From the IMG/VR virus record IMGVR_UViG_3300017987_005501: a stretch of 64,000 nt of DNA; one strand, given 5' to 3'. Below the pieces are notes generated by a model. The model saw nothing but the letters and a program-made list of their open reading frames with translations, ran no database searches and had not been told where the DNA came from. This stretch comes from a virus (taxonomy: Duplodnaviria > Caudoviricetes). Below, piece by piece: positions 36,702-47,102 of this stretch (the stretch's first letter is position 1; the number at the start of each line of letters is the position of its first letter). Both the position numbers and the translations under genes were made by a program.

Positions 36702-39700
36702 TTAAATTCTACATCTAACGACCACTACAATATCGCTAAAAGTGGATATTCCAGCCCCCGCTGTTCTTATAATTCTAACCCCCCATTCTGTTCCCGCTGC
36801 ACCAATATTTACATTTAATCCGGAAGATTGGTTCGAAATAACCCCATTTAATGCTAATGTTTGTAGCGATACGGGTGCGCCACTTGGAGAACTTATAACA
36901 TCAACATTATAATTATTTCCCCCATCTACGGTATCTACTCTTACTGAAATTCCTGTGATATTCGTATTTGTAATATTTGTAATCCCTACAAGAGAGCAGG
37001 CAACCATCCCATTATTAAGATATAGTGTTCCCGAATTAGGAACCTTTTGGTTCGAGGTAAAGACATAGTCTACTTCATCTTCATCTGGCCCGGCAATTCC
37101 TGTTTCCCCTTGGAATCCAGTTAATCCTTGGATTCCTGTTTGACCTTGGATTCCTGTTGCCCCAGCAACCCCAGTTAGTCCAGTTAGCCCAGTTAATCCT
37201 TGGATTCCTGTTTCTCCTGATAGCCCTGTTTGGCCTTGAAGTCCTGTTTCTCCAGCAACTCCTGTTAAGCCTTGGATTCCTGTTTCTCCAGATAATCCTG
37301 TTAAGCCTTGAAGTCCTGTTTCTCCTGATAGCCCTGTTAGACCCGATAATCCTGTTTCTCCTGATAGCCCTGTTAGACCCGATAATCCTGTTTCTCCAGC
37401 AACTCCTGTTAGACCCGATAATCCTGTTTCTCCAACAACTCCTGTTAAGCCTTGGATTCCTGTTTCTCCTGATAATCCTGTAAGTCCAGTTCCTCCAGCA
37501 AGTCCAGTTCCTCCAGCAAGTCCAGTTCCTCCAGCAAGTCCAGTTCCTCCAGCAAGTCCAGTTCCTCCAGCAAGTCCTGTTTCTCCAGCAAGTCCTGTTT
37601 CTCCAGCAAGTCCTGTTTCTCCAGCAAGTCCTGTTTCTCCAGCAAGTCCTGTTAAGCCTTGAAGTCCTGTTTCTCCAGGAAGTCCTGTTTCACCCTGAAG
37701 CCCCGTAAGTCCAGCAAGTCCTGTTTCTCCAGCAACTCCTGTTAGACCTTGAAGTCCTGTTTCTCCAGGAAGTCCTGTAGTTCCAGATAATCCTGTTAAG
37801 CCTTGGATTCCTGTTTCTCCAGATAGCCCTGTCTGACCATCAATTCCAGGAATTCCGGTTACCCCCTGAATTCCTGTTTCTCCAGCAACTCCTGTTAAGC
37901 CTGATAATCCTGTAAGTCCTTGGATACCTGTAAGTCCTTGGATACCTGTAAGTCCTTGGATACCTGTAATTCCCTGAATACCTGTTTGGCCTTGGATTCC
38001 TGTTTCTCCAGCAACTCCCGTAAGACCGGATAAACCTGTTTCCCCAGATAACCCTGTGCCCCCTGAAAGACCAGTTGATCCAGAAAGTCCTGTCTGACCA
38101 TCAATTCCAAGAATTCCGGTCACTCCCTGGATACCTGTTTCTCCGGATAGTCCTGTTGATCCTGAAAGTCCAGTTTGTCCATCTATTCCAAGAATTCCCG
38201 TAACCCCTTGGATACCTGTATCTCCGGGTAGCCCTGTTTGTCCTTGGATTCCTGTTAATCCGGATAGCCCTGTTGATCCTAATAACCCTGTTTCCCCTCC
38301 GAATCCTGTAATTCCCTGGATACCTGTTTCCCCTCCGAATCCTGTAATTCCCTGGATACCTGTTTGGCCCACAATTCCGGTAATTCCTGGGATACCTGTT
38401 TGGCCTTGGATACCTGTTTGGCCTTGAAGTCCAGTTTCCCCGGATAACCCTGTTTGACCTTGAAGTCCTGTTTCTCCAACTAACCCCGTTGCCCCAGTAA
38501 TGCCAGTTAACCCTTGGAATCCTGTTAATCCGGATAGTCCAGTTTGTCCTGTTAAACCTGTTGGCCCTAGAAGGCCAGTTTCTCCAACTAGCCCTGTTAT
38601 TCCTTGGATTCCCGTAGGACCATGGATTCCCGTAGGACCATGGATACCTGTAGGTCCTTGAAGACCAGTTCCACCCCCAGGAAGTCCTGTAAGTCCTTGG
38701 AAACCTGTCGGTCCCTGGAAACCTGTCGGTCCTTGGAAACCTGTCTCACCTTTTCCAGTTAGCCCAGTAACCCCCGGAGCTCCTGTTTCCCCAGATAATC
38801 CAGTGTTACCTTGGATTCCTGTTTCTCCAGAAAGACCGGTTATTCCCAGTGCTCCTGTGATTCCTTGAATGCCTGTTTCACCAAAAAGACCCGTGATGCC
38901 AGCAACTCCGGTTTCTCCTGTTAGACCTTGAAGACCAGTTCGACCATCGGCCCCAAGAATTCCAGTTTCTCCAAGAAGGCCAGTTATGCCTTGGATTCCC
39001 GTATTTCCAACGATGCCAGTAAAACCGGATAAACCTGTTTCTCCAGATAGTCCTTGGATTCCTGTTTCGCCAATAAATCCTGTTGTTCCAATAAATCCTG
39101 TGACTCCCTGAAATCCGGTTTCTCCAATAAGACCGGTAATTCCTTGTATACCAGTTTGCCCTGCAACCCCAGTTTCTCCAGATAATCCCGTGATTCCTTG
39201 GCTCCCGGTTTCTCCAGACAATCCTGTTGGCCCTAATAAGCCAGTTTCCCCAACGAGGCCAGTTAAGCCTTGAAGCCCTGTTTGACCTTGTGATCCTGTT
39301 TGACCTTGTGATCCTGTTGGGCCATAAATTCCTGTTGGGCCTTGGAGACCGGTTCCGCCTCCTGGTAGCCCTGTAACTCCAATAAGTCCTGTTTCGCCAA
39401 TAAATCCTGTAATCCCTTGGAATCCGGTTTCACCTTTTCCGGTTAACCCTGTAATCCCTTGAATCCCGGTCGGCCCAGATAATCCTGTTTGTCCCGCAAT
39501 TCCAACAACTCCTGTTTGGCCCTGAATACCAGTTTGACCTGGTATCCCTGTTTCTCCAGAAAAACCTGTTTCTCCAGAAAAACCTGTTTCCCCCGATAGC
39601 CCCGTTAATCCTTGAAGACCCGTTTCTCCAGAAAGACCCGTTTCTCCAGAAAGACCCGTTTCTCCAGAAAGACCCGTTTCTCCAGAAAGCCCTGTTTGAC

Positions 39701-45700: not shown

Positions 45701-47102
45701 TTCCAGTATCCCCAACTAGTCCAGTAACCCCTAAAGCAAATCCAGTTGCTCCGGCAATTCCTGTTTGGCCTTGTTGGCCAATCTCTCCTTGAAGTCCCGT
45801 TGCCCCAACAAGTCCAGTAATTCCAATACCTCGGATTCCGGTTTGTCCTTGCTGGCCAACTTCTCCTTGAAGTCCTGTCTGTCCTTGGATTCCAGTATCC
45901 CCCTGCGGACCTAATCCTGTATATCCCCGAATACCAGTAGGGCCTAGTAACCCAGTTTCTCCAAGAAGGCCAGTAATTCCTTGGATTCCCGTTTTTCCCT
46001 GGATTCCAGTTGGGCCTTGGATTCCCGTTGCCCCTATTAATCCAGTTATGCCTTGGATTCCCGTTTGTCCTTGGATTCCCGTTTCTCCGGATAATCCAGT
46101 TTGTCCTTGGATTCCAGTATCCCCAAGAAATCCTGTTACTCCCCGGATTCCTTGGATTCCCGTTTCTCCTTTAATCCCCGTTTGTCCTTGGATTCCCGTT
46201 GCGCCAACAAAGCCCGTTAATCCCCGTAGCCCTGTTTCGCCCATAAGTCCCGTATGCCCCCGAAGACCAGTTTCTCCGGTTACGCCCGTAGGCCCGGCAA
46301 GACCAGTTTCTCCAACAAATCCTGTGATTCCTTGGATTCCGGTAGACCCCTTAACACCCGTTTGGCCTTGGATGCCGGTTGCTCCTGTAAATCCAGTAAT
46401 TCCTTGGATCCCAGTGTTTCCGGCGAGGCCTGTTTGGCCTTGAAGACCAGTCGAGCCAACAAATCCAGTGACCCCTTGAATTCCTGTAGATCCTTTAATT
46501 CCAGTTTGTCCTTGGATTCCAGTATCACCAATAAATCCAGTAATTCCTTGAATTCCCGTTTCGCCAGCAATCCCAGTTTCGCCCCGAATCCCGGTAGGAC
46601 CAAGTAATCCTGTTTCTCCAACAAATCCTGTGATTCCTTGGATTCCCGTATCACCAATTAGACCAGTAATTCCTTGAATTCCCGTTTCTCCTTGGATTCC
46701 AGTCTCACCAATTAGACCAGTAATTCCTTGGATTCCAGTATCCCCAACTAGACCAGTAATCCCTTGGATTCCCGTCTCCCCCGCAATCCCAGTTTGTCCT
46801 TGGATTCCCGTTTCTCCAACAAACCCAGTAGTTCCTTGTATACCTTGGGCACCAGTTTGGCCTTGAATGCCAGTAGTTCCTTGGAAACCTGTAGGACCTT
46901 GAAGTCCGGTACCGCCCTGGGTCCCTTGTGCACCAGTTTGACCCTGGATTCCGGTATTACCTTGGAAACCAGTAGGGCCGGGGAATCCTGTTACTCCCGG
47001 AGGGCCCCCGAAAAGACCAGTCGGGCCTTGAAGTCCAGTGTCACCTTGTGCGCCAGAACCTCCACCCCCTCGGCAGCATTTTGTTGATCGGATTCTTACC
47101 AT
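36702..47102 (-). CDS. Giant collagen-like protein (3466 aa) with three globular inserts
   Basis: Single uninterrupted 10.4-kb ORF; Gly every third residue, hexapeptide G-X-T-G-h-X; N-terminal [10 protein letters not shown]. Confidence 0.95.
40482..41021 (-). repeat. Globular insert copy 3 (180 aa) in giant collagen
   Basis: DKVCYDF...LCLDETTK; nearly identical to copy 2. Confidence 0.9.
41120..42125 (-). repeat. Degenerate 18-nt tandem array encoding G[QSGL]TGL[AS]
   Basis: About 1 kb of units such as gacctgtttgaccagcaa / gacctgttgatccagcaa; bounds approximate. Confidence 0.85.
42369..42908 (-). repeat. Globular insert copy 2 (180 aa) in giant collagen
   Basis: DKVCYDF...LCLDETTK. Confidence 0.9.
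43309..43434 (-). repeat. Seven perfect copies of an 18-nt repeat (plus strand cctgtttctccagaaagt)
   Basis: Counted directly; encodes the SGETGL run. Confidence 0.9.
44523..45062 (-). repeat. Globular insert copy 1 (180 aa, more divergent) in giant collagen
   Basis: DIVCYDF...TCVDETVK. Confidence 0.9.

Follow-up and report, generated by a model that had tools for sequence, protein, structure and literature searches.

The window analysed here, a 64,000-nucleotide (nt) stretch of DNA from a virus of the Caudoviricetes (IMG/VR record IMGVR_UViG_3300017987_005501), carries on its minus strand a giant collagen-like gene (36702-47102) encoding a protein of 3466 amino acids (aa) and 328 kDa, with a calculated pI of 4.1. 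We conclude that this gene probably encodes a trimeric adhesion fibre carried on the virion of an as yet uncultured huge phage of marine sediment or seawater. In this proposal we infer the trimer, the triple helix, the disulfides, sugar binding, glycosylation and the position on the virion.

The gene is a single frame of 3466 codons read from an ATG with no internal stop. Counting runs of at least four Gly-X-Y triplets, we found 920 triplets (2760 aa) arranged in 29 runs of 7 to 176 triplets, and this recurrence of glycine at every third residue far exceeds chance. The triplets fall into four collagen segments of 668, 539, 450 and 1133 aa, spanning 2790 aa in total, so that the roughly 2,750-2,800 collagen residues given by the initial annotation, which was made from the DNA letters without database searches, agree with our count. 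Provided that all of this is triple helix, the calculated length at 0.286 nm per residue is 789-798 nm, and under that condition the annotation's figure of ~0.8 micron is also borne out. The collagen triple-helix repeat family PF01391 scored above cut-off in all pieces scanned with Pfam, and the DNA shows the 18-nt periodicity expected of two triplets. The ten cysteines are distributed as a pair at residues 9 and 10, two in each of three inserted domains (one near either end) and two in the C-terminal domain. The pair had been noted before as a possible trimer cross-link and does stand immediately ahead of the first triplets. The parts of the gene, in the order in which they are translated, are as follows.

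47064-47102, minus strand: N-terminus, 13 residues with Cys9-Cys10 just ahead of the first triplets
45060-47063, minus strand: collagen segment 1, residues 14-681, ~191 nm if helical, with 8 short breaks
44523-45059, minus strand: insert 1, residues 682-860, predicted CBM-like beta-sandwich (CBM, carbohydrate-binding module)
42906-44522, minus strand: collagen segment 2, residues 861-1399, ~154 nm if helical
43629-43766, minus strand: copy 1 of a hinge cassette, residues ~1113-1158, inside segment 2
43290-43439, minus strand: perfect 18-nt array of GLSGET units, inside segment 2
42369-42905, minus strand: insert 2, residues 1400-1578, the copy used for modelling
41019-42368, minus strand: collagen segment 3, residues 1579-2028, ~129 nm if helical
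40482-41018, minus strand: insert 3, residues 2029-2207
37083-40481, minus strand: collagen segment 4, residues 2208-3340, ~324 nm if helical, with three hinge cassettes
39966-40103, 39303-39440 and 38619-38756, minus strand: the other full copies of the hinge cassette
36705-37082, minus strand: C-terminal domain, 126 aa, residues 3341-3466, predicted TNF/C1q-like jelly roll

The triplets are of the bacterial and viral Gly-X-Thr type. Threonine fills 49% of Y positions, followed by glutamine (18%) and serine (10%), while leucine or isoleucine fills 49% of X positions, followed by glutamate (11%) and glutamine (10%). Collagen segment 3 consists of 150 unbroken triplets, chiefly GL[SA]G[SQ]T. 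Proline occurs only 81 times in the entire protein and makes up 2.1% of the collagen part, in which charged residues account for ~6%. With so little proline and charge, stability of a triple helix would probably depend on threonine glycosylation or on cold.

The regular triplets are interrupted by recurrent short breaks, which the initial annotation had described as GKGET and GGGT kinks within a repeated cassette. We counted GKGET, a triplet short by one residue, seven times (plus one GIGET) and GGGT, which has one residue extra, six times. Four full copies of a ~46-aa cassette pair a GKGET with a GGGT break 26 residues apart, and this spacing implies that the register lost at the first break is regained at the second. 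Of the 15 lysines in the collagen part, 12 belong to a Lys-Gly-Glu motif, and in seven cases that motif falls precisely on a GKGET break. KGE and KGD salt-bridge clamps are enriched around interruptions, most strongly in viral collagens (PMC11923368). With ~25 short breaks and three nodes at the inserts, the collagen part describes a segmented, kinked string and no rod.

The same features raise the alternative that the chains build no single extended triple helix and are instead largely disordered, helical only in places, or laterally bundled or gel-forming through their exposed leucine and isoleucine, giving a much shorter object or a mesh such as a particle coat. The very low proline and charge, the hydrophobic X positions and the number of interruptions (~25 breaks plus three large inserts) would fit such a state, and Gly-Pro-Thr repeats need glycosylation to fold, a (Gly-Pro-Thr)10 peptide being a random coil unless its threonines are glycosylated (PMC11923368). 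We nevertheless regard this alternative as distinctly unlikely. A perfect glycine periodicity with runs as long as 176 triplets is hard to explain without selection for a triple helix, and lysine is nearly confined to KGE clamps at breaks. Moreover, proline-poor collagens of the Gly-X-Thr type such as BclA do form triple helices, and both the cold marine habitat of the sample and the presence of glycosyltransferase genes nearby count against an unfolded chain.

Since repeats of this kind can be misassembled, the integrity of the gene bears directly on its length. The longest exact repeat is ~115 nt and belongs to the perfect 18-nt array at 43290-43439, and the other repeats are 60-89% alike. 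Four public sequencing runs from three studies of sediment and seawater metagenomes hold ~88% of the gene's sampled words, and their short contigs cover every part of the gene at 100% identity, with the unique parts at the same depth as the flanks. These Logan contigs break in repeats and are neutral on segment order; they are identical across runs and may not be independent. A better comparison came from L007, an independent 100.6-kb JGI contig found through a neighbouring gene, which matches the distal two-thirds of the gene and beyond. Its sole in-gene difference is a 22-nt gap inside the perfect array, and the gene is called there as two proteins of 1360 and 2099 aa, the 1360-aa piece starting at the same ATG by arithmetic. 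Order and length are thus common to both assemblies, which leaves doubt only about the unit count of the array. The single 3466-aa open reading frame (ORF) of the initial annotation holds in the window, and the independent contig agrees with it apart from those 22 nt.

That the ORF is an assembly artefact, or a bacterial cell-surface fibre gene, is in our judgement hardly credible. Short-read contigs do break in the repeats, and the 22-nt difference splits the frame in one contig, yet the two assemblies are identical base for base over the distal two-thirds save for one array, the repeats are diverged and the inserts are covered at flank depth. Genes of bacterial type in the window (transfer-messenger RNA (tmRNA), a ClpC-like ATPase, Map, Def and UvrD) might suggest a cellular origin; against this, the protein has no signal peptide, and a phiKZ-type sheath paralogue and tail-fibre homologues are encoded in the same window. 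Inspection of the 13-residue N-terminus revealed neither a signal peptide nor a membrane segment, which fits cytoplasmic assembly and release by lysis.

Two further contig differences concern neighbouring genes. Contig L006 (ENA) stops within the giant gene, and the 843-aa protein encoded beside it is six residues shorter than in the window, apparently by one 18-nt collagen unit. L007 (9647-10001) is without 73 nt relative to window positions ~34051-34124, near the start of the gene for a 1163-aa protein, which is called there as 1027 aa; the cause is strain variation or else a fault of assembly.

The collagen is interrupted by three inserts of equal length, each 179 aa between the flanking triplets and not 180 aa as first annotated, a figure that depends on where the boundaries are drawn. 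All three copies have the cysteines close to both ends that had been reported, at insert positions 3 and 173. The copies are 72-93% identical as protein and 71-88% as DNA; insert 1 is the most diverged (72-73% to the other two), and inserts 2 and 3 are 93% identical. This degree of DNA divergence indicates old duplications, with no duplication or collapse in assembly. Substitutions among the copies showed no clear clustering in loops versus strands.

An AlphaFold2 model of insert 2, built from a 25-sequence alignment, is all-beta and of high confidence (predicted local distance difference test (pLDDT) 94.4; predicted template modelling score 0.91), with a beta-sandwich fold like that of CBMs and galactose-binding domains. 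Its terminal strands, the first (residues 3-6) and the last (164-178), contain Cys5 and Cys175 respectively, so that the two cysteines sit 5 and 6 residues from the ends, a placement that fits antiparallel pairing with both termini on the same side. Across the family, both cysteines are present in 9 of 25 members and both absent in 15, with a single cysteine in one, and three of the five cysteine-pair relatives from outside the window bear collagen runs. The strand positions and the co-occurrence of the cysteines support a predicted disulfide-stapled insertion domain. A complex prediction with three copies of the insert gave a score of 0.00 without controls and bears neither way on how the domains pack in a node.

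Fold comparisons place the modelled insert among adhesion-type domains. The best matches among viral models are Gp420 of Bacillus phage G (template modelling (TM) score 0.83) and a Pithovirus collagen-repeat protein (TM 0.74-0.75), and among solved structures a chain from the phi812 baseplate ranks first (Z 12.1, with 159 residues aligned). The sugar-binding domains of GH2 enzymes (Z 9.6-9.7) and the modules CBM29 (Z 9.3), CBM22 (Z 9.0) and CBM16 (Z 8.7) follow; a fold search against carbohydrate-binding modules had been proposed as a check in the initial annotation. The picture of a lectin-like bead looped out of the helix gains from the model, in which a CBM-type beta-sandwich is predicted and the chain ends exit on the same side. 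Its number needs amending: three beads is right per chain, and a trimer would have nine beads in three nodes.

At the sequence level, a profile of the three copies found 32 distant relatives among 1.84 billion representatives (best E = 3e-12). Local Pfam matched collagen alone and no family for the insert, although precomputed tables place some of the relatives in PF27237 (AF_1625_C), a family without known function. Relatives of ~316 aa directly precede a tail-tube gene and a tape-measure gene. We found no relatives of the insert by tblastn against 50,697 GenBank phage records, by pattern scan of IMG/VR or in JGI metagenome contigs, and searching PDB sequences with a profile of the insert family gave no meaningful hit. 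The insert belongs to an uncharacterised adhesion-domain family found across phage tail tubes, baseplates and fibres, and the bead, as modelled, is an adhesion-type module of phage virions for which the fold suggests sugar binding.

The protein ends in a domain that recurs in other phage-like proteins. Its identity is 40-41% with the C-terminal end of the 843-aa neighbour and 36-62% with the ends of further proteins encoded on phage-like contigs, the majority of which contain collagen; two of its relatives are short (185 and 207 aa), have no collagen runs and lie in structural modules. Modelled from a moderate-depth alignment of 5 sequences (pLDDT 81.8), this knob adopts a jelly-roll fold of the TNF/C1q type. 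It matches 4-1BB ligand best (Z 10.0, 115 residues aligned at 2.9 A), then PBSX XepA (Z 9.1), the phage 7-7-1 tail fibre (8.6), the capsid cement proteins of KHP40 (8.3), BPP-1 (8.0) and Pam1 (7.9), the BclA C-domain (1wck; 7.0) and PRD1 P5 (6.6), and it also superimposes on EDA, CD70 and C1qA. The BclA_C family (PF18573) gave no match to residues 3290-3466 at E <= 0.01. Knobs of the TNF/C1q kind are trimers, and they nucleate the collagen helix in BclA and C1q. A related end is found on the 569-aa metagenomic protein P0035, in which collagen and two stretches matched by BclA_C are followed by a last short collagen linker and the knob family; this, too, is a small fibre of beads on a string, built with another type of bead.

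The giant gene heads a row of minus-strand genes that runs down to ~24441 and includes five more fibre-type genes, four of them collagen-bearing. This row, together with other features of the window that bear on the argument, is listed below.

34153-36684, minus strand: 843-aa protein with N-terminal domain, beta-helix (weak NosD match), short collagen and knob
30643-34134, minus strand: 1163-aa protein with N-terminal domain, beta-helix-like middle, collagen and a different end domain
29611-30633, minus strand: 340-aa protein without collagen
28450-29601, minus strand: 383-aa protein, collagen-globule-collagen-globule
27295-28446, minus strand: 383-aa paralogue, collagen-globule-collagen-globule
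~25514-27293, minus strand: three small ORFs with no family match
24441-25526, minus strand: patatin-like lipase with a Patatin domain
19597-21558, plus strand: Maf/MptE-like flagellin-type glycosyltransferase, 653 aa, 15 kb from the collagen gene
15163-15512, plus strand: tmRNA with a tag peptide ending YAMAA
11013-11087, minus strand: tRNA-Met

The 843-aa and 1163-aa proteins have an N-terminal domain in common, and over residues 107-272 the 1163-aa protein is similar to the N-terminal regions of proteins annotated as tail fibres in several phages; the giant gene is encoded in a fibre module beside a tail-fibre-like gene. In the 843-aa neighbour the knob stands at the opposite end from this tail-fibre-related domain, which argues that the knob is the distal end. 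A phiKZ gp145 sheath-like paralogue lies at 4579-5541, and the window also encodes a ClpC-like ATPase, Map, Def, UvrD and ThyA. Both tmRNA and translation-related genes are familiar cargo of huge phages. The initial annotation had left open a capture fibre or a surface nap; with the gene placed in the fibre row of a huge phage, the capture fibre fits better and the nap less well.

The knob also invites another placement, in which the protein is a 'hair' or decoration fibre of the head or neck: the knob would be seated on the capsid in the manner of a cement protein, with the string projecting from the particle or wrapped around it, for example for adhesion to particles or mucus, or for capsid protection. 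The match of the knob fold to the trimeric cement proteins of KHP40, BPP-1 and Pam1 favours this arrangement, as do a 185-aa, near-pure knob protein encoded between capsid/adaptor genes and a collagen fibre gene at locus L002 and the missing N-terminal anchor domain of the giant protein. However, the knob would be distal in the 843-aa neighbour, whose N-terminal domain recurs in a tail-fibre-like protein; the knob protein of locus L004 is found among tail-fibre-like genes; and a jelly-roll likeness at Z ~8 speaks at fold level only. On balance we consider a decoration fibre somewhat unlikely.

Several other properties of the row and of its surroundings are recorded here. Ahead of the collagen, the 843-aa and 1163-aa proteins both have a beta-helix region of the kind found in depolymerase tailspikes. 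The tandem 383-aa paralogues run from a short N-peptide through collagen, a globular domain, further collagen and a Thr-rich linker to a second globular domain, and are small two-bead versions of the giant fibre design. The patatin-like phospholipase that ends the row may act as a lipase on the virion or serve in lysis or entry. The glycosyltransferase is flanked by an AMP-binding enzyme (17819-19477) and the ClpC-like AAA+ ATPase (21560-23923); the latter, of 787 aa, has its best matches (44-47% identity) in records labelled as Staphylococcus, Listeria and Enterococcus phages and may hint at host lineage or at fibre folding. Divergent from the fibre gene, 47282-49975 (plus strand) encodes uracil-DNA glycosylase, methionine aminopeptidase (M24) and, past an unassigned 254-aa ORF, peptide deformylase, which gives the phage a set of genes for processing protein N-termini. 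The 843-aa and 340-aa neighbours had no relatives in scans of IMG/VR.

Taken with this context, the adhesion-fibre reading suggests a mechanism. The C-terminal TNF/C1q-like knob would gather three chains, and the Gly-X-Thr-rich sequence would then zip toward the N-terminus into a triple helix of the collagen type, the course followed by BclA and animal collagens. Collagen III forms a cystine knot through a Cys-Cys pair adjoining its triplets, and the Cys-Cys pair here may likewise lock the N-terminal end as an interchain cystine knot once the particle is outside the cell; alternatively or in addition, the 13-residue N-terminus may be a docking peptide. Each chain would leave the helix three times to form a 179-aa disulfide-stapled beta-sandwich and then re-enter it, yielding three nodes of three sugar-binding-type domains each. 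The short breaks, chiefly those of the GKGET/GGGT cassette with its Lys-Gly-Glu, would serve as flexible joints, hinges clamped by Lys-Glu pairs. The proline-poor helix would most likely be stabilised by O-glycosylation of threonine, for which the Maf-type glycosyltransferase is a candidate enzyme, or by low temperature. The resulting long multivalent line could contact host glycans weakly and reversibly, enlarging the capture radius of the particle, after which its neighbours in the row, namely the shorter fibres and the proteins with a beta-helix, would take over.

Several points weigh against this reading. The triple helix is deduced from the amino acid pattern, in a collagen part with only 2.1% proline and ~6% charged residues, and about half of the X residues are leucine or isoleucine, whose side chains would face outward from a triple helix and might favour bundling or a different fold. 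No virion-attachment domain is recognisable at the N-terminus, where 13 residues precede the collagen. The matches of the giant protein to PHROG 'tail fibre' families involve the collagen repeats only and hold no information about location. Close relatives were absent from IMG/VR, GenBank phages and JGI metagenome contigs. The frameshift in the L007 array, if real, would split the gene in that strain. To our knowledge, moreover, a length of 0.8 micrometre would exceed that of any characterised phage fibre several times over. Separately, the exact protein was absent from a collection of 15 billion proteins, and the animal collagen VII matches that dominated the full-length search reflect composition alone and were rejected as homology.

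A bolder variant makes use of the docking option. BclA offers an analogue, its N-terminus docking into BxpB/ExsF, and by the same logic the Cys-Cys peptide of the giant protein might dock in the knob of the 843-aa neighbour, attaching a glycosylated, triple-helical line of ~0.8 micrometre there and letting the proteins of the fibre row daisy-chain into a branched fishing line. We hold this arrangement to be unlikely. If true, the line would be the longest fibre known on any virus, several times the length of the particle, and would catch hosts, or their flagella or pili, in dilute seawater.

The general design has precedents. Prophage and phage collagen-like fibres have long been known (PMC3368898), and prokaryotic collagen-like polypeptides reach 2000 triplets (PMC11923368). 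The closest functional parallel is the Tal extensions of Streptococcus thermophilus cos/pac siphophages and lactococcal BK5-T-type phages, which likewise combine collagen with inserted CBMs and serve host-surface adhesion on the virion, the role proposed here for the giant fibre (PMC7533335). In contrast to the giant fibre, with its 13 pre-collagen residues and 2760 collagen residues, Tal proteins begin with a gp27-like baseplate domain of ~400 aa and have collagen of 100-500 aa; their CBMs are BppA-like (PMC7533335), whereas the insert described here comes from another, unnamed family. The three nodes and the paired-break hinge cassette also set the giant fibre apart from Tal. The giant protein would work like a Tal extension but, with no gp27-like domain, is no Tal.

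BclA resembles the giant protein in its Gly-X-Thr-rich, proline-poor collagen, short N-terminal docking peptide, TNF/C1q-like knob and absence of a signal peptide, and its threonines are O-glycosylated. It is, however, a spore protein with tens of triplets and no inserts, and its knob resembles that of the giant fibre only at Z 7.0. Anchoring of BclA to BxpB has been described (PMC10470788). Among viruses, PRD1 P5 is a trimer that joins a short collagen-like motif to a TNF-like knob at the C-terminus, as proposed for the giant fibre, but it has few triplets and ~340 aa in total and belongs to a membrane-containing, tailless phage. Gp420 of Bacillus phage G and the collagen protein of Pithovirus LCDPAC02 have the insert fold in common with the giant fibre in their BFVD models, and the Pithovirus protein also joins that type of fold with collagen repeats; both are only 15-18% identical in sequence to the insert.

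Giant collagens with repeated globular inserts are likewise encoded by the unstudied metagenomic mosaics P0039 (4070 aa) and P0041 (3351 aa), which differ in their insert and end domains and are similar to the giant fibre in the collagen repeats only (33-39% identity). Outside microbes, the cuticle collagen of the vent worm Riftia is micrometre-scale in length. It provides a parallel for threonine in the Y position with glycosylation replacing hydroxyproline (Mann et al. 1996, via PMC11923368), but it is an animal extracellular matrix protein of unrelated origin and without inserts. Set against these systems, the combination of collagen, inserted sugar-binding modules and an end knob is already described in dairy phages, and the giant fibre is an extreme version of it. 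Unusual are the 2760 collagen residues in a phage, nearly 1 MDa as a trimer, with no anchor domain at the N-terminus; an uncharacterised family of beads that has a covarying cysteine staple; and the paired-break hinge cassette.

Giant collagen ORFs are not rare in metagenomes. If this one folds as its sequence suggests, estimates of the volume searched by a non-motile virus particle would change, because encounter rate scales with capture radius. The protein would then also provide a test case for two questions raised earlier (PMC11923368): how long, proline-poor, interrupted collagens fold and re-nucleate, and whether threonine glycosylation replaces hydroxyproline in viruses.

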